Assembly (NCBI GenBank): GCA_037200905.1
Contig: JBBCGN010000004.1
Coordinates: 4,038-68,037 of the forward strand
From: a bacterium
GTDB taxonomy: Bacteria; Patescibacteriota; Minisyncoccia; Phycocordibacterales; UBA9973
DNA length: 64,000 nt
Reading direction: 5' to 3'
Shown here: in pieces, positions 2,932-55,508 of the stretch
Position numbering within the stretch: the stretch's first letter is position 1
Layout: each line of letters opens with the position of its first letter
Notes under the pieces: model-generated
Seen by the model: the letters and a program-made list of their open reading frames with translations, nothing else
Database searches by the model: none
Told to the model about the DNA's origin: nothing
Position numbers and translations under genes: made by a program

Positions 2932-3549
2932 ATGCAAAAGAACCTTATTGCTTTGAAAGGGCTGAGCGACGAGGAATTGATAGCCCGGACGAAAGAAGGG
3001 GATCCCGAACCGCTCGGCGTGCTGTTCGAAAGGCATCGCAAGCGGTTGCGGAATGCCATCTATGTTATCCTCAGAGACCATCGCAAGATACTCTTGGACA
3101 TAGACGACCTGATGCAGGATACGTTCCTCAAGGCATACCATGCCATCACGAAAGGCAAGATCCAGCCCGGCAACTTTCCCGCCTGGCTCCAGAAAGTCGG
3201 CCACAACCTGACCGTCGATGTCTTGCGCAGGAGGGCCTGGAGAGACCTTTCTGTCCCTTTTCCTGAGGACGACGATGAGGAATCTATGAGCCTGCACTTC
3301 GAGCCCGGCGCGGACGAGACCATGATAAAGGCCGAGACGGTCACGCTGATGCAGAAGTTTCTCGGCGAATTGAATCCGAAGAGCCGCGAGGTCATCCTGC
3401 TGCATTTCTATGCCGATCGCCCCTTCACAGAGATAGGCAGCATCATCCGGCGCTGCACCAGGGTGGCGCTTCGCAGGAAACGCTCCGGCATCGCCGACTT
3501 AAGGAGAAAGATGGGCGTCCCCGAAATGCAACTCGGAAAAGCATCCTGA
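2932..3549 (+). CDS. RNA polymerase sigma factor, sigma-70 family, ECF-sized (205 aa)
   Basis: Region 2 DDLMQDTFLKAYHAI and region 4 HTH REVILLHFYADRPFTEIGSII. Confidence 0.8.
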   Translation: MQKNLIALKGLSDEELIARTKEGDPEPLGVLFERHRKRLRNAIYVILRDHRKILLDIDDLMQDTFLKAYHAITKGKIQPGNFPAWLQKVGHNLTVDVLRRRAWRDLSVPFPEDDDEESMSLHFEPGADETMIKAETVTLMQKFLGELNPKSREVILLHFYADRPFTEIGSIIRRCTRVALRRKRSGIADLRRKMGVPEMQLGKAS

Positions 3550-3732: not shown

Positions 3733-4371
3733 ATGAAAAGGAATCGCACTATCCTAAGCGGCATGAGCGACCGGGAACTGATCGCCCTGACCCAGGCTGA
3801 AAACCCCGATGCGTTCGGCGTATTGTTCCAAAGGCACTCTGAGCGCCTGCGCAGCACGATCTACTTCCTGATCAAGGACCGGGACAAATCCCTGGTGGAC
3901 GATCTCGTCCAAGACGCCTTCATCAAGGCCCAGGAAGCCATCATGACCAAGGGTTATTCCGAAAGGAATAGTTTCGGCGCATGGCTCGCCCGCATCGGCC
4001 ACAACCTGGCCGTCGACTGCCTGCGCAGAAAAGGCCGGGGCGACAAGAAAGTCGTCTGCATGAGCCAGCTCGACGCGCGGGGCGGAGAATATTCGTATGA
4101 CGAATGGCACCAGCTCGGCAGCGGATCAAACAGAGAGGAAGAGATCGTGAAAGATGAGACCATCCGCATGATCGAGGAACTGCTCGAAGAGCTGTCTCCC
4201 GATCTCCGGGAGACACTGATCCTGCGCTATTATGCGGAACTGCCGTATCGCGACATCGCCGACATCACCGATGTCTCCATCAACACGTCGCTCGGCAGGG
4301 TGCGCTACAGCCTCAAAAACTTGAGGAAATTCTTGAACATGCCCAAACGCGCCATGCGCAAAGCAGTTTGA
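3733..4371 (+). CDS. RNA polymerase sigma factor, sigma-70 family, ECF-sized (212 aa), paralog of 2932-3549
   Basis: Region 2 DDLVQDAFIKAQEAI and region 4 RETLILRYYAELPYRDIADIT. N-terminus is parallel to its neighbour (LSGMSDRELIALTQAENPDAFGVLFQRH vs LKGLSDEELIARTKEGDPEPLGVLFERH). Confidence 0.8.
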   Translation: MKRNRTILSGMSDRELIALTQAENPDAFGVLFQRHSERLRSTIYFLIKDRDKSLVDDLVQDAFIKAQEAIMTKGYSERNSFGAWLARIGHNLAVDCLRRKGRGDKKVVCMSQLDARGGEYSYDEWHQLGSGSNREEEIVKDETIRMIEELLEELSPDLRETLILRYYAELPYRDIADITDVSINTSLGRVRYSLKNLRKFLNMPKRAMRKAV

Positions 4372-10046: not shown

Positions 10047-12269
10047 TTATTCTATCTTGTTGAGCTTATGAGGATTGTGATTTGCACAAGTTTTATTAGA
10101 GCACCTTTCAGGAATAGTTTTTGTGCCTTCCATCATCAATGAGCCGCATTTGTCACAGATATTGCCGGTCGGCTTGGCTTTCATGGCGAACTTGCAGTCG
10201 GGATAGTTCGAGCAGGCATAGAAGAGGCCGAAGCGTCCGCGGCGTTCCATGATCTCGCCCTTCTTGCATTCCGGGCACTTCACGCCGGTCATCTTCTTTG
10301 CTTTTTCGGCTTCGTCTTCCTTTATGAATTTGCATTTCGGATAGCGAGAACATGATATGAACGTGCCGGTGCCGTCGCGGCGTTCGCGTATGACGAGCTT
10401 GCCGCCTTTCTTCTCTCCGCAGAGCGGGCACGGCTCGCCGGTCTCTTCCGGGCCCTTGAGCTCCTGCCCGTCGAGCATGAGCGCGCCGTCGCAGTCGGGA
10501 TAGCGCGAGCAGGAATAGAACTTGCCGCCGCGGGAGAGCTTGATGATCATCTTCGAGCCGCACTTCGGGCATTTGATGTTGTCGGGAGCGTCGCCCAAGT
10601 TCGTGGCCTTTTCCAATTTTTCTTTGGACTTCACGTCTTTGAGGAACGGACCATAGAAATCTTTGAGTGTTTTCTCATATTCGCGCTCGCCACGAGAGAT
10701 CTCGTCGAGCTCGTCTTCCATCTCGGCGGTAAAGTCGTCGGAAATGTATTTCATGAAATGCGTCTCGAGGAAGTCGGACACTACTTCGCCGACATCGGTC
10801 GGGAAAAGCGTCTTGCCTTCTTTTCGCACGTATTCGCGGTCTTCGATGGTGCGCATGATGGATGCGTACGTAGAAGGCCGGCCGATGCCGCGCGATTCGA
10901 GCTCTTTGACGAGGCCAGCTTCGGTATAGCGGCCCGGCGGCTCGGTGAATTTTTCTTCGCTCGAGAGATCGAGCAGTTTCAATTTCTCTCCGGCTTTGAC
11001 TTCCGGCAGTTCCACGTCTTCGCCGCGAGCGCCCGAATCCACTTCGAGCCAGCCCGCAAAGAGCAGCGTGAGCCGTTTGCGGAGAATGCCGGCAGGTCTT
11101 CATGATCTTTGATGACGGCAGAGACTTTCGTCTTCAAGAGCTTGGCATCGGTCATCTGCGAAGACACGGCGCGCTCCCAGATGAGCTGATATAGTTTCTG
11201 CTGTTCTTCGGTGCCGGCATGCATGGCATCGATATGCGTCGGACGGATGGCTTCATGCGCTTCCTGGGCGTTCTTTGATTTTGTCTTATATATGTGCGCT
11301 TCGGCGTATTTCGCGCCGTACTTCTTAGTGACGAATGCCACGATCTGGTCCTGAGCCACTTTAGACAGGTTTGTGCTGTCGGTACGCATGTAGGTGATGT
11401 GTCCGGCTTCGTAGAGCTTCTGGGCGAGCTGCATGGTGCGCGAAGGGGAATAGCCGAGACGCGAGCTCGCTGTCTGCTGCAAAGTGGACGTGGTGAACGG
11501 CGCGCGCGGAGAACGCTTCTGTTCGGATTCCTTCACGCCTTTGACTATCCAGTCGCCCTTCTTCCCGGCTTCGAGAATCTTGTTCACGAGAGCCTCGTCG
11601 CGCGGCTCTTCGTCGCATTCGAGAGCAAGCTTGTCCTTTCGGATAGTCTCGAACTGGCCGAAGAGGCGCCAGAATTTTTCCGGCACGAAAGCCCGGATCT
11701 CGCGCTCGCGTTCCATGATGATGCGCAAAGCCGGAGACTGTACGCGGCCTGCGGATAGGCCGTAGCGCACTTTCTTCCATATCAGTCCCGAGAGGTCGTA
11801 GCCTACGAGGCGGTCGAGCACGCGGCGGGCTTCCTGGGCCCGGCGGAGAGCGGTATCGATGTCCGCGCGGATGCTTCAGGGCTTCCTGCACGGCTTCCTT
11901 GGTGATCTCGTAAAAAGCCACCCGTTTGATGGGCGCTTTTACTTTCTTGTCGGCGTTCAGGATCTCTTCGATGTGCCAGGCTATGGCTTCGCCATCGCGG
12001 TCGGGGTCCGTCGCGAGCACGATGCTCGTGGCCTTGTGCGCAAGTTCGCGCAATTCGCTGACGACTTTTTCTTTGCCCTTCGATATCTCGTAGTGAGGGA
12101 CGAAGCCCGCTTCGATATCGATGGCTGCCTTGTTGGACTTCGGCAGGTCGCGGATATGTCCGACGGATGCGCGCACGATATAGCGGTCTGCTTTGCTTAC
12201 AGAATCGTCATCTAAATATTTTTCTATTGTCTTGGCTTTTGACGGCGATTCCACTATCAATAATTTCAT
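10047..12269 (-). CDS. topA: DNA topoisomerase I with C-terminal zinc ribbons, two frameshifts
   Basis: Toprim MKLLIVESPSKAKTIEKYL...DPDRDGEAIAWH; core LDRLVGYDLSGLIWKK...SAGRVQSPALR; four CxxC..CxxC fingers. Frames join near 11845 and 11075. Confidence 0.9.
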
Positions 12270-12470: not shown

Positions 12471-13093
12471 ATGAAAAAATGCTATGTACCGACCCTTGCA
12501 TTCGCACTTGCGTGCGGGTTCCTCGCCTGCAAACCGGCTCAAGAGAGTTCGTCTCTGCTGCTGGCCAATGAGCCGAAAACAGACACGGTCCGTCTTACCG
12601 GGGATCTGATAGATCACTACAAGATAACGGAAGAGATGCTCCGGAACGAGCGCGTGTATCTCTTGCTCGAAGACAGCATCGTGATAATGAAGGAGTTCGC
12701 CGAGCGCGGGTCAAGCGTCAGCAGGCGACGGCAAGATAATCCTCAAGGACAACATCCAGACGGAAACGATCGTCTTTCCGAAGGGATCCAAGGGTCACTG
12801 CTTCTACATCGATAACGATGACAAGATGTTCATCACGTTCAAAAAGAAAGGCGAGTACAACCGTGAAAGTTTCTATCTCATTTTCGGCCCCCGACAGGTA
12901 TAGGGAGGACGGCGAGTACGTCTTCCTGGCGAAAAAAGATTCTTCCGGGAAACCGGACCGCCGACACACCTTTTATAAGGTCCAGTACGGCGAAGATTTC
13001 TATCGGATCGTGTACGGCCAGACCAATCACCTGCTTATCAGTAAGCGGACGGTGCTCGGGAACGACAGGCGCATCATCGAAGGCATCAGGTAA
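12471..13093 (+). CDS. Unassigned lipoprotein (about 205 aa), two frameshifts
   Basis: Signal plus lipobox MKKCYVPTLAFALACGFLAC. Reading continues across shifts near 12705 and 12890 to ...RIIEGIR*. TTGACT-17-TATATT promoter lies upstream. Confidence 0.55.
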
Positions 13094-13135
13094 AAATCAT
13101 CATCCGAGTCTCAAAGAGCAATCTTTGAGACTTTT

Positions 13136-13996
13136 TTATTTCAGCCGTAGCTCGCCGAGCTCTTCCTTGATGAGTTCCTTGATCTCCATGACGGAGAGCA
13201 GGGCGTTCGCCGCGGCGATCGGCATCTTGAGGGCCTTGAGGACTTCGTCGCGCGGCATGGGCTCGCGGAGGAGCGCGACGACTTTCTTCTCTTCCGGCGA
13301 CAGATCTTCGAAAAGCCGGGCCTGCTTGTCCTCGCTCTCTTCCGGTTCGAAACCGAGGGCTTCGAGGACATCGGCCGCATCCTGCACGGGCGTCGCTCCT
13401 TGGCGGATGAGCTTGTTGGTGCCGCGCGAGCTCGGCGTGAATATCGAGCCGGGCACCGCCAGCACGTCCTTGTTGTATTCCACGGCCAGGCGGGCGGTGA
13501 TGAGCGTGCCGGATTTTTCTTCCGCCTCTATGACGAGCACGGCTTTCGAGATGCCGGCCATCAGGCGGTTGCGCATAGGAAAGCTCCAGTGCGTGGCTTT
13601 GAAATCGGGCTCGAACTCCGACACGAAGCAGCCGCCGGCGTCGAGCACTTCGTCCATGAGGTGCGCATTTATTTCGGAAAAATGACATCTTTGGAAAGTC
13701 CGGAGCCGGGAAAGACGAGCGTGGTCAGCCCGGCGCGCATGGGCCGCCTTGTGCGCGATGGTATCGATGCCCATGGCGAATCCCGAGACGATGACGATGG
13801 GATAGCCCTTGAGTCCGGCGATGATCTTCTCGCAGGCCTCGCGCCCGTACGAGGTGAACTTCCGCGAGCCGACGACGCACAGGTGCACGAGGTCTTGGCT
13901 CGGCAGGTCGCCGAGCACCCAGAGGGTCTCCGGCGGCTGGGGCAGCTCGAGCAGGGCTTTAGGAAAATCTGCAGCTTGCAGTTTCTCTATTTTCAT
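13136..13996 (-). CDS. dprA: DNA processing protein DprA/Smf
   Basis: VVGSRKFTSYG, SGFAMGIDTIAH, FPMRNRLMAGISKAVLVIEAEEKSGTLITARLA. A paired +1/-1 slip (about 13745 and 13685) garbles roughly 20 codons. Confidence 0.85.
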   Translation of the reverse strand: MKIEKLQAADFPKALLELPQPPETLWVLGDLPSQDLVHLCVVGSRKFTSYGREACEKIIAGLKGYPIVIVSGFAMGIDTIAHKAAHARRADHARLSRLRTFQRCHFSEINAHLMDEVLDAGGCFVSEFEPDFKATHWSFPMRNRLMAGISKAVLVIEAEEKSGTLITARLAVEYNKDVLAVPGSIFTPSSRGTNKLIRQGATPVQDAADVLEALGFEPEESEDKQARLFEDLSPEEKKVVALLREPMPRDEVLKALKMPIAAANALLSVMEIKELIKEELGELRLK

Positions 13997-17359: not shown

Positions 17360-18388
17360 ATGCATGATGTAGCACTCTACAGGAAATACCGGCCGAAGAA
17401 CTTCGCGGAAGTGAAGGGGCAGGAGCAGGTAGTAAGCGTCCTCGAAAGCTCGATCAAGAACGACAAAGTCTCGCACGCATACCTCTTTGTCGGCTCGCGC
17501 GGCACAGGCAAGACCTCCGTGGCCCGCATCTTCGCCGAAGCCATCGGCGTCGGCGCGAACGACCTCTACGAGATAGACGCCGCGTCGAACCGCGGCATCG
17601 AGGACATCCGCACACTGCGCGACGGCGTGCGCGTCCTGCCGTTCGACTCGAAATACAAGGTCTACATCATCGACGAGGTGCACATGCTCTCCAAAGACGC
17701 CTGGGGCGCCCTCCTAAAGACTCTGGAGGAGCCGCCGAAGCATGTCATCTTCATCCTGGCTACCACCGAACTGCACAAAGTGCCGGAGACCATCATCTCG
17801 CGCTGCCAAGTATTCAATTTCAAGAAGCCGAGCGACGTCATACTGAAAGATATCGCCACCGATATCGCCCGCGCCGAAGGCTACGAGCTTGACGGTGGTT
17901 CGGCAGAATTGATAGCGATACTCGGCGACGGATCATTCCGCGACACCGAAGGCATACTGCAGAAAGTCTTGAACTTTTCCAAGGCAAAGAAGATCAAGCG
18001 CGAAGACGTGGAGCATATTACCGGCGCGCCGAAGACCTTGCTGGTGAATGAATTCATTTCCGCTATCGCGACAAAAAATATCGAAGAGGGAATCACCGTC
18101 GTGCGCAAAGCCTCAAGCGAGAACCTTGATATGAAGCTCTACCTCAAGCTCATCATTCAGAAATTCCGCATGGCCGTCATCCTGCGCTACGCGCCAAAGC
18201 TCGAGAAGGAAATGGCAGGGGACTTGTCAGGAGAAGATCTAGCCTTTCTGAAAGACTTCAAAGAGAAAGACATGTTCAATTCTGCCTCGCTTGCCGCATT
18301 GCTCGAAGCCTATCAGAACATAGACCGGGCCTTTATTTCCGAGCTGCCGCTCGAGCTCGCATTGGTGAAGATTTTGAAACGGGAATAG
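17360..18388 (+). CDS. dnaX: DNA polymerase III gamma/tau subunit (342 aa)
   Basis: HAYLFVGSRGTGKTS, YKVYIIDEVHMLS, ATTELHKVPETIISRCQ. ATG lies 7 nt after TGaTAGAAT (17345-17353). Confidence 0.85.
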   Translation: MHDVALYRKYRPKNFAEVKGQEQVVSVLESSIKNDKVSHAYLFVGSRGTGKTSVARIFAEAIGVGANDLYEIDAASNRGIEDIRTLRDGVRVLPFDSKYKVYIIDEVHMLSKDAWGALLKTLEEPPKHVIFILATTELHKVPETIISRCQVFNFKKPSDVILKDIATDIARAEGYELDGGSAELIAILGDGSFRDTEGILQKVLNFSKAKKIKREDVEHITGAPKTLLVNEFISAIATKNIEEGITVVRKASSENLDMKLYLKLIIQKFRMAVILRYAPKLEKEMAGDLSGEDLAFLKDFKEKDMFNSASLAALLEAYQNIDRAFISELPLELALVKILKRE

Positions 18389-18448
18389 CTGAAATGAAAA
18401 AGCTACCCGTGATAAGGTAGCTTCGGCGCCATGACCAGCATGGCGTTC

Positions 18449-18802
18449 CTAAGATTTTTTCTTTCCCATACGAGCATCCTCTTTCTGGAGCAGGGCATGC
18501 CGATTGGCTTGCAGTTCCCATAGGATGGCGAGCCGGGTGCGGACTTCACGATTGTACTCTCTTCCCAAGGAATCCCCGAGCGTGCTGGGCGGAAGGTGCC
18601 TAATCTTTTCGTTCAGATACGTGCATATGCCGACCAGGGAATCAATCTTGTGAGACAGCGAGTCCCATGCGGCGATGAAACGGAAGGTCTTTTGATCTTC
18701 CTCAGACCTTTTCGTGTCGTTAAGGTCAATCACGAAATACGCGTATACTGCAACTGCAAAAATTAAAATCATAAAACCGTGAATAGGATTTACTTTTTTC
18801 AT
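18449..18802 (-). CDS. Small N-terminally anchored protein (117 aa), unassigned
   Basis: ORF with one TM helix (GFMILIFAVAVYAYFVI). AT-rich. Confidence 0.4.
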   Translation of the reverse strand: MKKVNPIHGFMILIFAVAVYAYFVIDLNDTKRSEEDQKTFRFIAAWDSLSHKIDSLVGICTYLNEKIRHLPPSTLGDSLGREYNREVRTRLAILWELQANRHALLQKEDARMGKKKS

Positions 18803-18930
18803 CGTATATATTTTAGTGAAGAACTTGATTACTTATACAGTATATCACATTTTATAAATAAAGTCAATATGTGTCTCCGTACATAGATTTTACTCATATT
18901 TTGTGGTATAGTTTCAACGTTTTTTATTAT

Positions 18931-19004
18931 TGGGAGATCGTCTAACGGTAGGACAGAGGCCTTTGAAGCCTTTAATCTAGGTTCGATTCCTAGTCTCCCA
19001 GCCA
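18931..19004 (+). tRNA. tRNA-Gln (anticodon TTG), CCA encoded
   Basis: Acceptor TGGGAGA/TCTCCCA, D-arm GTCT..GGAC, anticodon arm GAGGC-CTTTGAA-GCCTT, T-arm CTAGG-TTCGATT-CCTAG. TGgTATAGT promoter at 18904-18912. Confidence 0.9.
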
Positions 19005-19095
19005 ACAAGAGCGTCGCTCGAGACGCGTCGGTGCAATATCTGAAGGTTTTGCATAGAGCGATATTTTCAGTAGAGCTGATATAATGAGGAAACAT

Positions 19096-20218
19096 ATGGA
19101 AAAGATGGGTGAAGGGAAAATATTGACTCCAGAAGCAAGAAATTATGCCAAGCTTGAAGACATCTTTGAGCACGATCTTGAAAACCTTATATTGTCAGAA
19201 TTAAATCCTGAAACTCCATCGGAAGAGCGCATTGATTTTCTTAAAAAAGAACTTGATATTACCTCAACACTACTAAGTAATCTCTCAATTCCGTGGAGAA
19301 TTGGCGGGTCATTTGCATTAGTGCTTAATACTGAAAAATTTGCAAGAGATCTTCACGATATCGATATAGAAATAAACTTAGACGATAGGAAGATTTTCTT
19401 GCAAGAATTGCAGAAATTGGGAGGAACTTTTAAGCACGATGATGGCAAGGGCGATATTCACGAGATAACTCCTGAAAATATAGACTCGATAAACCAAGGC
19501 AAGATTACCCATTCGGAATTGGGTATCGACGTAGAAGTTTCTATTTGTTGACTTCGACACTAACACTATTGAAAGCCCAGATGGGGCTAGTATTGAAGTT
19601 GATAAAAACGAATACCAAGAAGGTGTTGGTATATACCAAACCTTTTCTGGAAATAAGATTGAATTGAGACCCCTGGAAATAAGCTTGATAAACAAAGTTA
19701 TTGACCAGCGGCCAAAAGATCTTGTTGATATTAAAACTTACTTACCACTTTTATCAGAAGAGCAGCGAGGACGCTTTGACAGATACTACGAAAGATTTAA
19801 TCTTTTTCTCAGTACGCCATCAGGAAAGGCACTTTCCACAATTGAGGACCTTGTTAACTATTTACCCTCTCCTGAAGATATTCAAAAGATTACAAACAAG
19901 GAAGTATTATTGGCGGCGCAAGCTCTTGAAAAAAGAATTGACACTGTATTAAGTGAAATTATACAGGATGCAAAAATTGATGAAATACCAAAAAAGATAT
20001 TAAGTAGTAAAGTTTTTAAAATATTGGGACAGGAAATAAGCCATCTTATTATCAGTAGTTATCAAGACGGTATGCATAGCGTTGCAGATTTAAGGAATCT
20101 CATTTTGTCGTCTCTAAAAGAAGATCAGATAGATATTCTTTTATCAGATTGGACGAAAGATGCTTTGCACAATTCTCTTAATAATATTGAAATTTGGGAG
20201 GCAAGAAAAAATTCATGA
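19096..20218 (+). CDS. Nucleotidyltransferase-fold protein (ANT(2'')/AbiEii-like), one frameshift
   Basis: NTase motif WRIGGSFALVLNTEKFARDLHDIDIEI. Frames join near 19540 (GIDVEV|LFVDFDTN). Downstream motif RPKDLVDI. The track ATG at 19084 sits inside the -10 box (19080-19085), so I use ATG 19096. Confidence 0.55.
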
Positions 20219-20344
20219 TTAAGGCGAAATTAAAAATGCGCTCGAGTTGCGTCGTTGTATCATAGGAACATATTAGAAACAAACATTACAAGGCTTAATC
20301 GATTACGGTTCCAGCTCGAGAAGGTCAGCTCGGAAAATTGGAAA

Positions 20345-20378
20345 TAAAAAAACCGGTTACTTGTGACCGGTTTTTAAA
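20345..20378. terminator. Bidirectional terminator between convergent genes
   Basis: AAAAAAA-ACCGGT-tacttgtg-ACCGGT-TTTTT. Confidence 0.7.
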
Positions 20379-20392
20379 ATTCTTCTCAAGCT

Positions 20393-20764
20393 CTAATTAG
20401 TTTCTTCTTGTTTCTCAATCAAAGTAATATATTCTTTGACCTCAGTAGCAAACTCAGTAGGAAATACAGCATCAGCAATATCTGAAATCTCTGTTCTCAA
20501 CAGAGTATATATTATTGATGGGTATCCTACGAGACTGTTTCTAATTTGCTGATTAGTATATCCATTAATTCCTCTCTCAAGATCATAAAGTGCAAGATTT
20601 GCACAAAGAACAAATCCTTCGGGGACAAGCTCGTTGTTTAAATAAGTACTGAGAAATGCGGCAAAGCTGTATACCAGCTCATTGCGTGTTTCTGGTAAGA
20701 ATTCTTTTAGATTGAGCAATTTAGTCTTTGGTTCTGCCATAGATAAAACTTTTTCGGAGTTCAT
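20393..20764 (-). CDS. Unassigned protein (about 123 aa)
   Basis: ORF track 20393-20836. TGaTATTAT lies inside the 5' part, so MNSEKVLSMAEPK (ATG 20764) is the likelier start. No family recognised. Confidence 0.4.
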   Translation of the reverse strand: MNSEKVLSMAEPKTKLLNLKEFLPETRNELVYSFAAFLSTYLNNELVPEGFVLCANLALYDLERGINGYTNQQIRNSLVGYPSIIYTLLRTEISDIADAVFPTEFATEVKEYITLIEKQEETN

Positions 20765-20870
20765 GTTGTATATATTTAATTTGGTTTTGAATAACATTAC
20801 CGAACACATAATATCACTATTTTGGTCTTTTATCAATGTTTATTTAGCCCTTATTTCCCATCAATAAAGT

Positions 20871-20956
20871 TCCAACCCTCACAGAGGACTGCATTTTCAA
20901 CAGGCCCGTGGCGCCTAAGAAAACGGGAGCGTCGTACCACAATCCCAGCTCGTAAA
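20871..20956 (+). repeat. Direct repeat copy A (86 nt), ends in the AATCCCAGCTCGTAAA core
   Basis: Aligns to 21307-21390 with 10 mismatches and one 2-nt indel. Confidence 0.9.
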
Positions 20957-21261
20957 ATAAAAAGCCCGGATATAAAAATCCAGGCTTCAATAAAAAACTA
21001 CCTTGCTTTAGGGTTACGAGAGTCGTCAGCTTTTTTCACTTTAGGTGATTATTACTAGAATCTCGCAGATTCGCCACGCGTTTTTTCTTGTGACTACTTA
21101 GGATATTTCTCAGTTATCTATCATGAGTTTAAAGCGGCATAGCCACAACAGAAACTTAATAGAAGTCCTTACAACCCTGGTCAAATAAGCACCAGTTTAC
21201 CCTTTTCCCCTTTACTATAGTTAGGGGAATCGCGATTGCTTTCTTGCAAAGTGCACTGCCT
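20955..21261 (-). ncRNA. Candidate noncoding RNA (about 307 nt), class unknown
   Basis: Minus-strand TTGACA (21296-21291), 17 nt, TAGTAT (21273-21268). Terminator hairpin AAGCCTGGA/TCCGGGCTT (20987-20962) followed by a U-tract. Longest ORF inside is under 15 codons. Confidence 0.45.
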
Positions 21262-21306
21262 GAGGTAATACTAAAAAATTAGAACAGTTTTGTCAATGAC
21301 TAAGGG

Positions 21307-21390
21307 TCCAACCCTCACAGAGGACTGCGTTTTCAACAAGCCTGCAGCCTAAGGAAATGGGAGCATCGTTCCACAATCCCAGCTGGTAAA
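21307..21390 (+). repeat. Direct repeat copy B (84 nt), ends in AATCCCAGCTGGTAAA
   Basis: About 86 percent identical to copy A. Lies just upstream of the candidate ncRNA -35 on one side and the next gene's TGcTATAAT on the other. Confidence 0.9.
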
Positions 21391-21408
21391 GTTTGCTATA
21401 ATGCTTCA

Positions 21409-21959
21409 ATGTTTGATGCACGGATATTCCCAGATAGTCTAGATAATGCAAAGAAATTCTTGAAGGACAAGGAGCTGCCTTTAAAGGTGAATACGAAATT
21501 CATGATTATATATTTTCTTCTACAGATTCAGAACAAACCTTAGATAAAGTATTTTTACGCCTACGTATGATTCCTGTGAATATTTGGAATGAGAAGAAAG
21601 TAATCGTTACAATAAAAAATACTAAACTTCAGAAAATAGGCAAGAAATCCATTATTCCTGTTAAAGAACAATTTAATACTGAAGCAGAGGCACGAGCGTT
21701 TATAGAAAAAAATTATTCTGATGCCTTCAAACCGGATTTCCATTTTGACAGAAAAGGCTGGCAATATGATTTACCTAATGGTGATCAGGTTGACCTCGAA
21801 GATATTGAGGCGCATTTCTCTATTGAGTTTAAATCTGAGACAGAAGAAGGATTGCAGAACTTGCTGGATCTATTTCAGACCTCTTCGAAGGAAGTTATCA
21901 GAGGACCTTCTGTAGTTGCGGTTAGGGACTTGCTCAAAAAGTGGAGTTGGATTAAGTAA
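21409..21959 (+). CDS. CYTH-like (class IV adenylate cyclase / triphosphatase fold) protein, one frameshift
   Basis: Joined read MFDARIFPDSLDNAKKFLKDKGAAFKGEYEIHDYIF...LRLR...VIVTIK...FHFDRKGWQYDLPNGDQVDLEDIEAHFSIEFKSE follows the CYTH strand pattern. Slip near 21470. The N-terminal ExExK motif is not conserved. Confidence 0.4.
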
Positions 21960-21963
21960 AAAT

Positions 21964-21990
21964 GTTCCAACGTCAATCCCAGCTCGTGAA
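21964..21990 (+). repeat. Collapsed repeat copy C (5' GTTCCAAC fused to 3' AATCCCAGCTCGTGAA)
   Basis: GTTCCAACGTCAATCCCAGCTCGTGAA retains both ends of the 86-nt unit without its middle. Confidence 0.7.
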
Positions 21991-22043
21991 TTTAGCCTCA
22001 TTTGATATAATCAATTCTATTATAGGTCTAAATAAATAACTTT

Positions 22044-22424
22044 ATGAAAAATCAAATAGAAAAATATGTCGATGGGTATGTACTGGTGGTTCCAAAGAAT
22101 AAAATTTCAGCTTACAAGAAAATGGCGCAGATGGGCGCCAAGATGTGGAAAAAACACGGAGCGCTTGATTATAAAGAATGCATGATTGATGATGCTACGC
22201 CGAAGCATTCAACTTTTCCATTTCCAAAAATGGTAAAACTGAAAAAGGGGGAGACAGTCTGGTTCTCTTTCATCACATATAAATCAAGAAAGCATCGTGA
22301 TGAGGTAAACAAGAAAGTCATGAGCGATCCCGCAATGAATGATCCCAAATGGAAAGACATGCCTATGCCTTTCGACATGAAACGTTTCGCGTACGGTGGA
22401 TTTGAAGTTGTTGTCTCAATATAG
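22044..22424 (+). CDS. DUF1428-family protein (126 aa)
   Basis: YVDGYVLVVPKNKISAYKKMA...MWKKHGALDYKEC...FAYGGFEVVV matches my memory of DUF1428 (YbaA-like). Confidence 0.6.
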   Translation: MKNQIEKYVDGYVLVVPKNKISAYKKMAQMGAKMWKKHGALDYKECMIDDATPKHSTFPFPKMVKLKKGETVWFSFITYKSRKHRDEVNKKVMSDPAMNDPKWKDMPMPFDMKRFAYGGFEVVVSI

Positions 22425-22440
22425 GTCCCAGCTTCGTACC
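22424..22440 (+). repeat. Core copy D (GGTCCCAGCTTCGTACC)
   Basis: Overlaps the last base of the DUF1428 stop codon (22422-22424). Has one extra T relative to the core. Confidence 0.6.
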
Positions 22441-22473
22441 AGGCATCCGGCAAATTCTGATATACTTCAAGTC

Positions 22474-22950
22474 ATGAAAAAGCGGTTATTCTTTTCATGT
22501 ATTTTCATCGTCTATATCGCCATCCTCATCAAGGTCATGGTGTTCAAGTACGTGCCGGCCGTCCATATAGGACAACTGCTGCTTGATTTTGGAGGGACGA
22601 ACGCAGGCTATCCGGCAAACTTTGTGCCGTTCAAGACCATCGTGCCGTATCTGCTCGGCTATGAGGGATGGATCATTGCGGGCACCAATCTCGTCGGAAA
22701 TATCGCTTTGCTCGTGCCGATAGGATTTCTCGCACCTTTCATCTATCGGAACATGGTATGGAAAAAATCTCTTGCACTCGGCGTCGCTTCCGGTCTTTTT
22801 ATCGAGACGATGCAGGCGATATTGCACGTGGGCATTTTCGACATTGACGACGTGATACTGAACGCACTCGGCGTCATGATCGGCTATTGGGCGTTTGTAT
22901 TTCTCGCAAAAGGGAAACGCTGGCAGTCGGCCTTGAGAGTCAATGAATAG
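22474..22950 (+). CDS. VanZ-like membrane protein (158 aa)
   Basis: NFVPFKTI, GNIALLVPIGFLAPF, IFDIDDVILNALGVMIGYW. ATG lies 8 nt after TGaTATACT (22458-22466). Confidence 0.7.
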   Translation: MKKRLFFSCIFIVYIAILIKVMVFKYVPAVHIGQLLLDFGGTNAGYPANFVPFKTIVPYLLGYEGWIIAGTNLVGNIALLVPIGFLAPFIYRNMVWKKSLALGVASGLFIETMQAILHVGIFDIDDVILNALGVMIGYWAFVFLAKGKRWQSALRVNE

Positions 22951-23997: not shown

Positions 23998-24302
23998 AGA
24001 ACAAAAGTTTTCCTTTAAATTACATCTTAATCAATTGTCTGTCAAGGAGTACCATCCCGGCTTCAGGCCAAAAAATCGGGCAAAGAAAAACAGCTCCATT
24101 CGTGGAGCTGTTCGATGTAAAGGCATCTTGAGCATCTATAGGGCGAACCTTTTCGATATCCAGCCCGTAAAATCTGCTATACTACCGCTCAAGTCCGGCG
24201 ATGGGGAAATGCATTTCAAGAAATAGCAGGTGTACTCTCAGGGGGCAGAATAAAAAAACCATTTCCTTGGGAATGGTTTTGATGTTTTTTCGCTTTCGGA
24301 CC

Positions 24303-24563: not shown

Positions 24564-24791
24564 GGTATGTATTTTTTTGTTTAAGAACAGACTTCTAGCA
24601 GGTCTTTTCCGTATTGGTTGGTTTTAGCAGCTAGAATGCTTATCTGGTATATAGTATACCATATTGTAGTATAAAAGTCAAATAAAGCTACTGTGCGGCC
24701 TATGAGGCTTGTATGATAAGCTTCTTCTGGCGCCTCATAAAGCCGGACGGAGAAAGAAAGCTCTCTTGCCAGATTTTGCTATACTGAGAGC

Positions 24792-25184
24792 ATGCATACC
24801 AACAAGAAATTGATCATCTGCGTCGTTATCAGCCTCCTCGTCGGCTTGAGCCTCGGTTTTTGCGTCGGGAAAAATAAAAATAGCCGGAGCGCGAACGTGC
24901 ATACGATGCCCGACGGCACGGTCATGAGCAACGAGCTCGAGACGGGCATCGACCATGCCATGGAGTCAATGAGCGCCGGACTGAGAGGCAAGACGGGAAA
25001 TGCCTTCGACAAGGAATTCCTGAGCGAAATGATAGTGCATCACCAGGGAGCGGTAGACATGGCTCAGATGGTGCTCAAGACGTCAAAGCGGCCGGAGCTG
25101 CTCGAGCTCGCCCGCGACATCATCTCGGCCCAGACAGGAGAAATCAAAATGATGCAGGAATGGCAGAAGGCCTGGTTCAAGTGA
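24792..25184 (+). CDS. DUF305-family protein (130 aa)
   Basis: N-terminal anchor, then FDKEFLSEMIVHHQGAVDMAQ and LARDIISAQTGEIKMMQEW. Confidence 0.7.
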   Translation: MHTNKKLIICVVISLLVGLSLGFCVGKNKNSRSANVHTMPDGTVMSNELETGIDHAMESMSAGLRGKTGNAFDKEFLSEMIVHHQGAVDMAQMVLKTSKRPELLELARDIISAQTGEIKMMQEWQKAWFK

Positions 25185-30925: not shown

Positions 30926-31928
30926 ATGAGCGGAGACGATGTGAAGGCATTACAGCTGCTGCTCGTGGCGACGGCGTGGTGCGCTGGCGCCAGGAGAAAT
31001 TCATCCCGAAGGCGGGCCGGCCGGCGGCGATGCCGGCCGCGGCGGAGACTTCTTCGTGCAGGCGGTGCGCGACGTGCACATCCTTTCCAAATACAAGGCT
31101 AAGAAAGATTTCAAAGCCGAGCGCGGCGAAGACGGCGGCAAGAAGAAATTGCATGGCGCCAACGGCGCGGATTTCGTGCTCGAGCTGCCCATCGGCTCCA
31201 TCATCACAAACCTCGCTACCGACGAGAAATACCAGCTCCTCGAAGAAGGCCAGAAGATCATGCTCCTTCGCGGCGGCTACGGCGGCTACGGCAACGAGCA
31301 TTTCAAGAGTTCTATCAATACTACCCCGATGGAGGCGAACGAAGGAGCCGAAGGCGAAAAAGGAGATTTTCATATCGAGCTCGAGCTCTTTGCCGATATG
31401 GGCCTGATCGGCCTGCCGAACGCGGGAAAGTCTTCGCTCTTGAACTCGCTGACCAATGCCTCGGCGAAAGTCGGGGATTATGCCTTTACCACCCTCGATC
31501 CGAATCTCGGCGATTTTTACGGCTACATCATCGCGGACATTCCCGGCATCATCGAGGGCGCCAATGAGGGCAAAGGCCTCGGCGTGAAATTCTTGCGCCA
31601 CATAAAGCGCACCAAGGAGCTCGCGCATCTCGTGTCGTTCGAGAATCTCTCGCTCGGCTCGACCGGCATGATAAAAGTCTACAAGGAGATACGCAAAGAG
31701 CTCGCGAGCTACGACAAGAATCTGGGTCTCGGCGACGAAGGCCTGGCCAGCAAGGAAGAGATCATCATCCTGACCAAGGCCGATACGGTGCCGGATCCGA
31801 AGATCGTGGCCCGCGAAGAAGCGAAATTCAAGAAGCTCGGCAAGAAAGTCTTTACCCTGTCGCTCTATGACGACAAGTCCGTAAAATATCTCTCCGACAG
31901 CCTCATCAAGATCCTCAAAAAGAAATAA
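30926..31928 (+). CDS. obg: GTPase Obg, two frameshifts in the N-terminal domain
   Basis: [50 protein letters not shown] spans three frames (slips near 30975 and 31015). G domain follows: GLIGLPNAGKSSLLN, DIPGIIEGA, TKAD. Confidence 0.8.
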
Positions 31929-51007: not shown

Positions 51008-52509
51008 ATGAGCACGAACAATATCGTAGAAAATTTAAGAAAGGAGATAGAGAATTTCAAGCTGGAAACCCAAGTCGAGAAAGTGGGCAAAGTGCTCGAA
51101 GTTTTCGACGGTATTGCGAAAGTGTCAGGGCTCTCTGACATCAAATCATCCGAGATGGTCACATTCGCGGGAGGCGAGACGGGCGTGGCCCTCAACCTCG
51201 AAGAAGACGCGGTAGGTGTCATCATCCTGGGCGATTTCTCTCATATCAAGGAAGGCGACGAGGTGAAAGCGATCGGCAGAATCCTCGAGATTCCTGTTTC
51301 CGACGCCATCGTCGGCCGCGTGGTAAATGCGAACGGCATAGCCATCGACGGAAAGGGCACTATCAAGGCCGACAAGACCTACCCGATCGAGAAAGTGGCT
51401 CCGGGCGTCATCACCCGCCAATCCGTCGATCAGCCGGTCTACACCGGCATCAAGGCTATCGACGCCATCATCCCGGTCGGCCGCGGCCAGCGCGAGCTCA
51501 TCATCGGCGACCGCCAAACTGGTAAGACCGCTATCGCCATCGACGCCATTTTGAACCAGAAAGGCCAGAACATGATCTGCGTCTACGTATCTATCGGTCA
51601 AAAAGATTCAAAGCTCCGCAAAATCCAGACCCGTCTCGAAGAAGGCGGCGCTATGGAGTACACCGTCATCGTCTCCGCCGGCGCATCGGAAGCGGCAGCG
51701 CTCTCATATATCGCTCCGTACACTGGGGTCTCCATTGCTGAATATTTCATGGATCAGGGCAAAGATGTTTTGATAATCTACGATGATCTTTCCAAGCACG
51801 CCGTGGCATACCGAGAAATCTCGCTCTTGCTCCGCCGTCCGCCGGGCCGCGAGGCATTCCCGGGAGATGTCTTCTACTTGCATTCTCGCTTGCTCGAGCG
51901 CGCATGCCGTCGAAACAAAGAATACGGTGGTGGTTCTATCACAGCATTTCCAATTATCGAAACTCAGGCAGGTGACATCTCTGCATATATTCCGACGAAC
52001 GTCATCTCTATTACCGACGGACAGATTTCTTGGAGACTGATCTTTTCTATAAAGGCATCCGTCCGGCTGTGAACGTGGGCTCATCCGTGTCTCGCGTGGG
52101 CTCTTCCGCGCAGATCAAGGCCATGAAGAAAGTGGCAGGAACTTTGAAGCTCGACCTCGCTCAATTCCGCGAGCTCGAAGCCTTCTCGCAGTTCGGTTCC
52201 GATCTCGACGAAGCTACCAAGCGCCAGCTCGAACGCGGCAAGCGCTCCGTAGAGCTCTTAAAACAGCTCCAATACGCTCCGGTAAAAGCAGAGCACCAGA
52301 TCGTCACTATGTACGCTCTCGTAAAAGGCTTTATGGATGATGTTGCTATTGAACGCATCAAAGAATTCGAAAGCGGTTGGGTAGAATACAGTGAAAGAAA
52401 TGCTAAGACTTTCTACAAAGAAGTGGCTGAATCGAAAATGTGGACAGAAAAAGGGGAAGCTGAGCTTGTGAAAGCACTTAATGATTTCAAAGCATCATTT
52501 GCAAAATAA
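51008..52509 (+). CDS. atpA: F-type ATP synthase subunit alpha, one frameshift
   Basis: Walker A GDRQTGKT, then ITDGQI|[25 protein letters not shown] across a slip near 52035. Confidence 0.9.
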
Positions 52510-52515
52510 AATTTT

Positions 52516-53429
52516 ATGGCAGGAACAAAAGAAATTAAAAGAAGAATAAAGAGCGTCAAGAACACGAAGAAAATCACGAAAGCGATGGAACTCGTGGCTG
52601 CTTCAAAGATGAAGCGTGCTGTTTCTTCGACTCTGGCTTCACGCTTATACGCTGAATACTCTTGGGAGGTTTTAACTTCTATTGCAAATTCTGCTGAAGA
52701 AATCACTCATCCGCTTTTTGTGCAGAAAAATGGAGATGTTAAGAACAAAAATGTCTTGCTTGTATTAATTACTTCAAATCGAGGACTCTGCGGTGCATAT
52801 AATGCGCAAGTGGTAAAGAAAACTATTTCTTTGCTCAAAGAAAACGAGAATTTAGATTTGATTACTATTGGTAAGAAAGGTGATGCAACTATGCGCAGAT
52901 TGAATAGAAACATCTTGGCAAGTTTCTAGAACTTCCAGACAACATAAATCTTGCGAATGTTCTGCCTATTTCAAAACTAGCTATCGATGAATACATTGCT
53001 GGACGCTATGACCAAGTCCTCGTCGCATATACAGACTTTATTTCTGCCCTAACACAAAAACCAAATATCAAACAAATCTTGCCAGTGTCTAAATCAGATC
53101 TGAAAGATTTGATTGAAGAATTAAAGATCCCGACCGAAGGTCGAGAATCCACGACAGCTAAAGCTGTCGGGACAAATTATGTTTTCGAAGGAGATATCGC
53201 GACATTGATAGGTAGTTTGGCAGAAAAATTAGTCCGCATGCAGATATATCAGATGTTGCTCGAATCAAATGCCTCTGAGCAATCGAGTAGAATGGTAGCC
53301 ATGAAGAACGCATCTGAAGCTTCCGGAGAAATGATAGATGACCTGACGCTGGTATTCAACAAAGCCCGACAAGCCAACATTACCAGAGAAATATCAGAGA
53401 TTAGTGCCGGTATGGCAAGTGTAAGTTAA
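52516..53429 (+). CDS. atpG: F-type ATP synthase subunit gamma, one frameshift
   Basis: KEIKRRIKSVKNTKKITKAMELVAASKMKRA and C-terminal ARQANITREISEISAG. Slip near 52925. Confidence 0.85.

Positions 53430-54142: not shown

Positions 54143-55508
<1,366 letters not shown>

Follow-up and report, generated by a model that had tools for sequence, protein, structure and literature searches.

A candidate transcription unit without a reading frame, enclosed by direct repeats, in a mosaic region beside a tRNA-Gln gene

Phage morons are reportedly autonomous modules, each with its own promoter, gene, and terminator, that lie in mosaic regions. The cis-mobilizable elements (CIMEs) are said to be flanked by attachment (att) sites while having no integrase, and tRNA-linked islands to grow by accretion; in T4-like phages, promoter-early stem-loop (PeSL) repeats are reported to flank the genes of hyperplastic regions. 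Here we set against these systems, and against integron cassette arrays, a locus in a 64-kb stretch of the bacterial contig JBBCGN010000004.1 (the whole stretch analyzed is henceforth termed the window). In it two direct repeats of about 86 nt, A and B, enclose what we call the ORF-less unit, a minus-strand promoter-like site followed by an intrinsic terminator, with no open reading frame (ORF) of a recognizable protein between them. An earlier note on this DNA had taken the unit for a candidate noncoding RNA cassette of about 0.3 kb, inserted between copies of a duplicated attachment sequence.

We tentatively read the unit as a reverse-oriented, moron-like module of a mosaic region linked to a tRNA-Gln gene, which may well have been inserted by recombination at a short, recurring junction element. 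The accessory region would start at tRNA-Gln, downstream of dnaX, and consist of single-gene modules parted by plus-strand copies of this element. The unit would have entered, or been duplicated, through recombination within the element, either as a circle with a single copy of the element that integrated in the Campbell manner or by unequal exchange between element copies; by both routes the unit would end up with a copy to its left and another to its right. The sequence shows the repeats, the motifs, the mosaic layout, the recurrence of the element at module borders in the window and in relatives, and the lack of coding potential; transcription, the mechanism of recombination, and any function of the RNA are what we infer, and we consider it about equally probable that the unit is a live orphan small RNA (sRNA) gene and that it is a mere shell, the promoter and terminator left by an eroded gene.

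The likeness to morons lies in the unit and in a neighboring gene, orf123: each is self-contained, with a sigma-70-type promoter and an intrinsic terminator, and each is inserted opposite to an otherwise co-oriented array. Unlike morons, the unit has no ORF and lies in a bacterial chromosomal context with no phage or plasmid match; furthermore, morons are normally not flanked by 86-nt direct repeats. With integron arrays, which include ORF-less cassettes, the locus shares single-gene modules of unrelated accessory functions, a boundary element that recurs in fixed orientation on the 3' side of each module, and the occurrence of the same gene with different neighbors across genomes; as in attC sites, the element has conserved ends around a middle whose length differs between copies (about 30 nt in the short form and 86 nt in the long form). 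Integron cassettes are mostly promoterless and share one orientation, whereas here the plus-strand modules have a TGnTATAAT box 6 to 9 nt before the ATG, and the two reversed modules, orf123 and the ORF-less unit, have their own −35/−10 promoters and terminators. The anchor of the array is also a tRNA gene and not an attI site, and most borders in related arrays are without the element. We rejected a true attC/gene cassette system because the element has no inverted repeats and no hairpin on either strand and because there is no intI or other integrase gene nearby.

Like tRNA-linked islands, the region is a low-GC island immediately 3' of a tRNA gene, at a locus that is variable in two related contigs (L010 and L019), and direct repeats in the orientation of the tRNA part its sub-modules. 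Like a CIME, the A-B module is flanked by repeats and has no recombinase of its own, and L010 has a true duplication of the tRNA 3' end. In contrast to these systems, an origin from the tRNA 3' end is not demonstrable for the repeats in the window, the modules measure just 0.35 to 1.3 kb, and neither the window nor the loci examined yielded a cognate integrase. Like PeSLs, the elements are short, conserved, promoter-associated intergenic sequences that flank small variable genes, and they could similarly be recombination substrates for module shuffling; PeSLs combine a stem-loop with a defined early promoter, whereas the element has no stem-loop and stands at a variable distance from the −10 box. 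On integrons or tRNA-linked hypervariable islands in bacteria of the candidate phyla radiation (CPR), we found nothing relevant in the literature.

Repeats A and B and the junction element

When the two repeats (20871 to 20956 and 21307 to 21390) are aligned, 75 of 86 columns are identical (87.2%), 9 are mismatched, and a gap takes up 2 nt (E value of 2.5e-18 with blastn-short); the identity is close to the 86% or so reported in the earlier note. Their similarity extends 2 bases further leftward (GT/GG), which sets their true starts at 20869 and 21305. They are the only full-length copies in the window, as seen both with an nhmmer profile of A plus B and with a pattern search in which 0 matches were expected by chance. 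The profile also picks up a partial third copy (21966 to 21996), which had previously been described as a collapsed repeat retaining just the two ends. This description is borne out: the copy, designated C, reads GTTCCAAC+GTC+AATCCCAGCTCGT (E values of 0.001 to 0.002), with an exact match to the 14-mer CAATCCCAGCTCGT and with GTTCCAAC lying 2 bases upstream of it.

The proposal that the ends are the conserved part can be extended. The ends of A and B (GTTCCAAC ... TCGTACCACAATCCCAGCT) stand side by side as a contiguous element of about 30 nt not only at C but also at two other module borders of the window, D and E, and in the Paceibacteria-like contigs L016, L005 (twice), and L017. Hence, the collapsed form appears to be the usual one, with A and B as expanded variants, i.e., junction elements with an additional shared GC-rich insert of about 50 to 55 nt. 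The GC content of A and B is 55% and 51%, respectively, against 38% in the interior and 35 to 37% in the flanks. The element reads as three loose GTNCCANC half-sites, roughly GTTCCAAC-TTCGTACCAC-AATCCCAGC. Half-sites of this kind within 18.9 to 24.3 kb number eight on the plus strand and one on the minus strand (18 and 8, respectively, in the whole window).

The relatives searched were contigs carrying homologs of the gene, encoding a protein of about 178 amino acids (aa), that follows repeat B. In L016, the 40-nt spacer past the stop codon of the ortholog is GTCCCAACTTCGTCCCACAAGGCCAGC, in which the 5' end of the A/B repeat is fused directly to its 3' end; this element (2116 to 2152) is the positional ortholog of copy C, and a downstream TGAATTT is common to both. 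One of the two copies in L005 (5952 to 5985, reading ..AACTTCGTACCAGACGGTCAGCTTGTA..) lies upstream of the ortholog, and the homology between L005 and the window spans the gene, the −10 box, and then the last 30 nt or so of repeat B. The other (462 to 489, GTTCCAACTTCGTCCCAGACAATCAG) follows a NUDIX gene and was recovered at an E value of 5e-4 with a short-form profile that did not contain it; likewise, the L017 copy (10531 to 10557), which overlaps the stop codon of the ortholog, was recovered at 0.02 with a profile from which it was absent. A model built from the window only (A and B minus the insert, plus D) and searched against 84 kb of related DNA returned as its top four sites those of L016 (E value of 0.008), L005 at 462 (0.04), L005 at 5955 (0.3), and L017 (0.4), all on the gene strand. 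A partial copy of the 3' end, F (24141 to 24173, TCCAGCCCGTAAAAT), is followed in the window by TGCTATACT (to 24184), an arrangement that recalls repeat B. F itself falls beyond the low-GC stretch and has no clearly identified gene after it.

Folding of A, B, and C as single-stranded DNA gave z scores of +0.85 to −1.13 relative to shuffled sequences on both strands (+0.2 to −1.1 for the repeats A and B), with no pairing of the arms, and a repeat search reported no inverted repeats at these coordinates. On the minus strand, the two repeats have three hairpins in common (−19.2 kcal/mol), in which five of five substitutions in paired columns preserve wobble and compensatory double changes number zero. 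As these hairpins were chosen on the same two sequences, they are only suggestive of an RNA structure. The mismatches between A and B, judged by eye, are not adenine-specific, on which ground we rejected the template and variable repeats of a diversity-generating retroelement.

The ORF-less unit between the repeats

The minus-strand promoter and the intrinsic terminator, both of which had been recognized in the earlier note and withstood reinspection (Table 1), occupy the space between A and B. As judged by motif matches alone, they have the traits of an independent sRNA unit, in that promoter and terminator share a strand, are suitably far apart, and have no ORF between them; in the genomes and collections searched, neither a conserved nor a covarying RNA was found. 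The earlier limit of under 15 codons for the longest ORF proved too low, with ORFs of 24, 22, and 21 codons (from TTG or ATG starts) in the interior. None of these has a Shine-Dalgarno sequence or a homolog, and stop codons are dense in all frames. The longest was rejected as a small peptide or type I toxin on account of its TTG start, its want of a Shine-Dalgarno sequence, and a hydrophobic stretch of just about 11 residues. The predicted transcript has a minimum free energy of −84.5 kcal/mol, with a z score of −2.8 to −3.0 (−2.1 without the terminator); the fold is strand-asymmetric, with z scores of −0.4 to −1.3 on the plus strand versus −2.1 to −3.0 on the minus strand. Pairing of the predicted RNA in antisense with the 5' regions of five neighboring genes was not significant (z scores of −0.8 to +1.0).

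In agreement with the earlier failure to match the RNA to RNase P, transfer-messenger RNA, signal recognition particle RNA, or 6S RNA, the unit matches no Rfam family at all. At the gathering threshold, a scan of the window found four tRNAs and nothing else, and the best match of the unit in permissive scans of Rfam 15 scored 21.6 bits versus a gathering score of 58.7, with the weak matches confined to the terminator hairpin. In six frames, no protein homolog was found at an E value of ≤10 among 5.8 billion clusters (searched as a six-frame concatenate) or in Pfam, and tblastn with all ORFs of the array gave no match to the interior. Together, these searches led us to reject a recognizable degraded protein gene, the homology that the earlier note had said would undo its proposal. 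A decayed paralog of the orf123 module was similarly rejected, the local alignment score being 19 versus a shuffle mean of 20.5.

The search for homologs in metagenomes, which had been suggested as a check, returned nothing related. In the JGI metagenomes, a two-block pattern of the repeats had no match, and a pattern of the repeat ends had two, both within coding regions and attributable to chance. Among the GTDB species genomes, a 19-mer of the repeat had one match, in a metagenome-assembled genome of Flavobacteriaceae, which does not extend and is likewise a chance match. Words from the repeats and the interior found nothing among IMG/VR viral contigs, and blastn of the 581-bp region against phage and plasmid collections gave no match. 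Conservation in related genomes, on which the earlier proposal was to stand or fall, was accordingly seen for the ends of the repeats and not for the RNA. Of the noncoding RNA cassette, which is unproven, there remain the promoter and terminator without an ORF; no conservation and no Rfam match were found, and its fold is matched by coding sequences (see below). The notion of a module inserted between duplicated attachment sequences survives in outline, in the form of a recurring border element, and finds no support as an instance of a known system, there being no hairpin, no integrase in the loci searched, and no significant match to the tRNA-Gln 3' end.

Several other candidates were considered for the unit and its surroundings. 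For a ToxIN-like type III toxin-antitoxin system, the interior (20957 to 21304) has no tandem repeats and there is no toxin match in PADLOC. A miniature inverted-repeat transposable element or another derivative of an insertion sequence is inconsistent with ends that are 86-nt direct, not inverted, repeats and with the lack of a transposase remnant. A retron was rejected because orf123 encodes just 123 aa, its family has no RVT domain, and the RNA and orf123 are parted by a terminator and a separate promoter.

The tRNA-Gln-linked region and related arrays

The window sequence matches the NCBI contig JBBCBH010014826.1 (68,697 bp), whose end falls at about position 30966; as the window runs on for 33 kb more, with an ORF spanning that point, it derives from a different or longer record. 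The nearest relatives of the window genes are labeled Candidatus Paceibacterota, and the host looks like a tiny-genome bacterium of the Paceibacteria (CPR) type with a GC content of 55%. The GC content of the window is mostly 52 to 60% and falls to 33 to 40% from about 18.6 to 22.4 kb. The low-GC mosaic itself (about 19.0 to 22.5 kb; some 3.4 kb at 36% GC) begins directly after tRNA-Gln(UUG), which is preceded by dnaX (17360 to 18388). Its modules follow in the order nucleotidyltransferase (+), orf123 (−), ORF-less unit (−), ~178-aa gene (+), DUF1428 (+), and VanZ (+) (Table 1). The ~178-aa family is one that we take, by eye, to be CYTH-like. An extended −10 box, TGCTATAAT (21394 to 21402), lies 6 nt before the ATG of the ~178-aa gene, and copy D begins at the very base after the DUF1428 stop codon, where the GC content climbs from about 37% to about 47%.

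TABLE 1 Features of the tRNA-Gln-linked mosaic region (window coordinates)
Feature	Position	Strand	Basis or remark
tRNA-Gln(UUG)	18931..19004	+	ARAGORN and Rfam
Module 1, nucleotidyltransferase-like gene; two ORFs (19084-19551 and 19664-20218) in different frames	19084..20218	+	Pfam PF10706, weak
Junction element, copy E (GGTTCCAGCTCGAGAAGGTCAGCTCGGAAAAT)	20307..20338	+	Weak, by eye; CAGCTCGGAAAAT E 2; nhmmer E 17; half-site 20308
Intrinsic terminator of orf123	20348..20375	−	10 pairs plus T-run
Module 2, orf123, 123 aa, uncharacterized family	20393..20764	−	HMMER relatives; no Pfam domain
Promoter-like site of orf123, TTGATA-17-TATTAT with TG extension	20808..20836	−	Motif match
Repeat A, long-form junction element	20869..20956	+	GTTCCAAC + ~50-55-nt insert + GTCGTACCACAATCCCAGCTCGTAAA; repeat and profile searches
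Predicted ORF-free transcript of ~300 nt (candidate sRNA or eroded gene)	20955..21261	−	Inferred from promoter and terminator positions
Intrinsic terminator of ORF-less unit	20961..20988	−	11 pairs (5 GC), 10-11 bp; U-tract to ~20951
Promoter-like site of ORF-less unit, TTGACA-17-TAGTAT	21268..21296	−	TTGACA 21296-21291, TAGTAT 21273-21268; 10/12 consensus matches
Repeat B, long-form junction element	21305..21390	+	3' ~30 nt homologous to region upstream of L005 ortholog
Module 4, ~178-aa Paceibacterota family gene, frameshifted (21409-21543 and 21567-21959)	21409..21959	+	70 homologs, ~175-185 aa
Junction element, copy C, short form with internal deletion	21964..21987	+	4 nt past module 4 stop codon
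Module 5, DUF1428 gene	22044..22424	+	Pfam, 1.1e-35
Junction element, copy D (GTCCCAGCTTCGTACCAGGCATCCGGC)	22425..22451	+	E 5.9e-6 (model containing D); E 0.29 (model from other genomes only)
Module 6, VanZ-like gene	22474..22950	+	Pfam, 3.4e-24; gene call

Genes of the arrays often have an extended −10 box of the form TGnTATAAT or TGnTATACT 6 to 9 nt before the ATG and no Shine-Dalgarno sequence, both in the window (21394 to 21411, 22003 to 22046, 22457 to 22476, 24176 to 24184, and 24779 to 24794) and in L005 (5989 to 6003, 6570 to 6586, and 490 to 509). This spacing implies leaderless transcripts, with each gene having its own promoter. Two adjacent genes for extracytoplasmic function-type sigma factors (Sigma70_r2/r4) are found at 2932 to 3549 and 3733 to 4371 and are possibly relevant to this unusual promoter architecture.

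In every genome examined, the ~178-aa gene has different neighbors, which indicates gene-by-gene shuffling, and its setting is always an extended series of small accessory genes, most of them in one orientation, which include NUDIX, His_Phos, GrpB, GDSL lipase, DUF1428, HEPN, and other genes. The succession of dnaX, tRNA-Gln(UUG), and an accessory run is kept in three Paceibacteria-like genomes (17360 to 19004 in the window, 1 to 3189 in L010, and 1 to 504 in L019), and the gene content of the linked run differs completely among the three. In L010, a contig of 600 kb, 18 nt of the tRNA-Gln 3' end recur without a mismatch as a direct repeat (GAGTCCCTGACCCGCAGC, at 3172 to 3189 and 3336 to 3353), and the two copies enclose 146 nt with a terminator hairpin and no ORF. 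This pair has the appearance of a classic att duplication at the tRNA-Gln locus and indicates that insertion at tRNA-Gln does occur in the lineage. In L019, a fragment matching bacterial 16S rRNA (13018 to 13166; model positions 107 to 310, 66.6 bits) sits between genes of an accessory region, at a great distance from any rRNA operon of the locus.

The product of orf123 is identical to the NCBI protein WDN09_02995 and belongs to an uncharacterized family. A word-indexed search of the 5.8 billion clusters finds only the protein itself, and exhaustive HMMER searches find 366 relatives at an E value of ≤1e-3, some of them as domains of proteins of 300 to 520 aa. There is no Pfam domain, RVT included, in orf123 or its family, members of 320 to 520 aa among them; a weak match to RT_I-B of PADLOC (E value of 0.003) covers the C-terminal 55 positions, and the predicted structure has a predicted local distance difference test score of 55, too low to be of use. 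Upstream of the closest homolog of orf123 (L020), we found no RNA partner; a tRNA-like sequence and a terminator are present there.

Some genes of the window are split or truncated, including essential ones: atpD is represented by two overlapping ORFs and topA by two ORFs, atpG covers the first 134 of 285 profile positions, and atpA is 354 aa long (split or truncated atp ORFs at 51008 to 52072, 52516 to 52929, and 54158 to 54784 plus 54766 to 55494). This suggests either indel errors of the assembly or unusual pseudogenization. As essential genes elsewhere are also split, the frameshifts near the unit may be assembly errors rather than signs of decay.

Weighing the explanations

The following observations weigh against a moron-like module inserted at a junction element. 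No Pfam match to an integrase or recombinase was found among the called genes within 10 kb on either side, in 20 further ORFs of the window, or in the related arrays, and no hairpin or inverted-repeat structure was found in the element. Neither a homolog of the 300-nt interior nor a long-form copy beyond A and B turned up in the GTDB species genomes, the JGI metagenomes, IMG/VR, the phage and plasmid collections, or the 12 related loci, the scans of the collections having used exact words from the repeats and two interior segments, which divergent homologs could escape. Promoter-like hexamer pairs occur at the frequency expected by chance in AT-rich DNA (6 found versus 5.6 expected in shuffled sequences), terminator-like hairpins being enriched (6 versus 1.4 expected). 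Two of five coding controls of equal length from the same island reach z scores of −2.2 to −2.4, so that the fold alone is no evidence for a structured RNA. The sequence matches that define the short-element family give it modest support, with best independent E values of 5e-4 to 0.04; copies E, F, and another termed Z were recognized by eye, and E is not significant on its own. The element is present at just 2 of about 20 gene borders of L005 and was not detected by profile search in L007, L010, L014, or L019. Lastly, small indels in the region of the unit may be assembly errors.

A possible, if less probable, explanation is that the unit is what is left of a reversed, moron-like protein gene of which the promoter and terminator have survived, with A and B as a functionless local duplication of spacer DNA. 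CPR genomes are in general reductive, the neighboring nucleotidyltransferase and CYTH-like genes are frameshifted, the RNA has no homolog or family match, and its fold is no better than that of the coding controls. The interior also has the GC content of the surrounding island, whereas structured RNAs in AT-rich DNA are usually GC-richer. The absence of any related protein in the six-frame, Pfam, and array-protein searches described above argues against such a remnant, as do the dense stop codons in all frames and the intact state of the promoter and the terminator; moreover, the split essential genes elsewhere suggest that the frameshifts nearby are assembly errors.

It is rather unlikely that the element is regulatory DNA upstream of promoters, in which direct GTNCCANC half-sites would be bound by a transcription factor controlling the plus-strand genes that follow, with A an orphaned duplicate and the unit incidental. 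Such a role would fit the architecture of the element, which consists of two to three direct half-sites spaced 8 to 11 nt apart. Copies B, C, D, and F and those at 462 and 5952 of L005 are each followed after 9 to 31 nt by TGnTATAAT, with the ATG 6 to 9 nt further on, and these promoters are without a −35 hexamer. An activator site standing in for the −35 hexamer would not usually vary in its distance to the −10 box as widely as from 9 to 31 nt. Copies A and E are followed by the terminators of reversed modules and no promoter, the copy in L017 lies across a stop codon and ahead of a reversed gene, and the one in L016 is followed within about 8 nt by the next ATG and lacks a −10 box.

We consider it improbable that the copies are decayed 3' ends of tRNA-Gln, from T-loop to discriminator, left as att scars by serial integrase insertions, with A and B as the attL and attR sites of the last small insertion. 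The start of the array at tRNA-Gln, the tRNA orientation of all copies, and the L010 repeat 146 nt downstream of the tRNA are what such scars would lead one to expect. There are also resemblances at the level of motifs: TTCG..CC..CCAGC in the element recalls TTCGAnTCC...CCCAGC in the tRNA, D starts with TAGGTCCCAGC where the tRNA has TAGTCTCCCAGC, and CAAC..GAGCGTCG is common to A and the 3' flank of the tRNA. Yet the resemblances between element and tRNA 3' end measure just 7 to 11 nt (TCCCAGC; TAGGTCCCAGC), and the copies are more alike to each other than to the tRNA. A hidden Markov model of three tRNA-Gln 3' ends retrieves no element copy at an E value of <200, a search of the window with the 3' 22-mer of the tRNA at ≤3 mismatches finds the tRNA itself, once, and no integrase was found.

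A bolder extension of the reading that we favor, to which we assign a low probability, is that the tRNA-Gln locus downstream of dnaX in Paceibacteria-type CPR bacteria could be an undescribed, integron-like cassette platform. Single-gene modules, RNA-only ones among them, would be captured and shuffled at a nonpalindromic element of about 30 nt (three GTNCCANC half-sites with a variable middle) by a recombinase acting in trans. This reading is built on a handful of modestly significant sequence matches.

If the junction element mediates the capture of modules, as in the reading of the unit as an inserted, moron-like module, it would point to a means by which reduced CPR genomes, which to our knowledge have few recognizable mobile elements, exchange accessory genes singly at a fixed site next to a tRNA gene, and it would provide a sequence tag for locating such regions. 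A live sRNA gene in the 300-nt unit would in turn give rise to an orphan regulatory RNA, in a lineage for which we know of almost no sRNAs.

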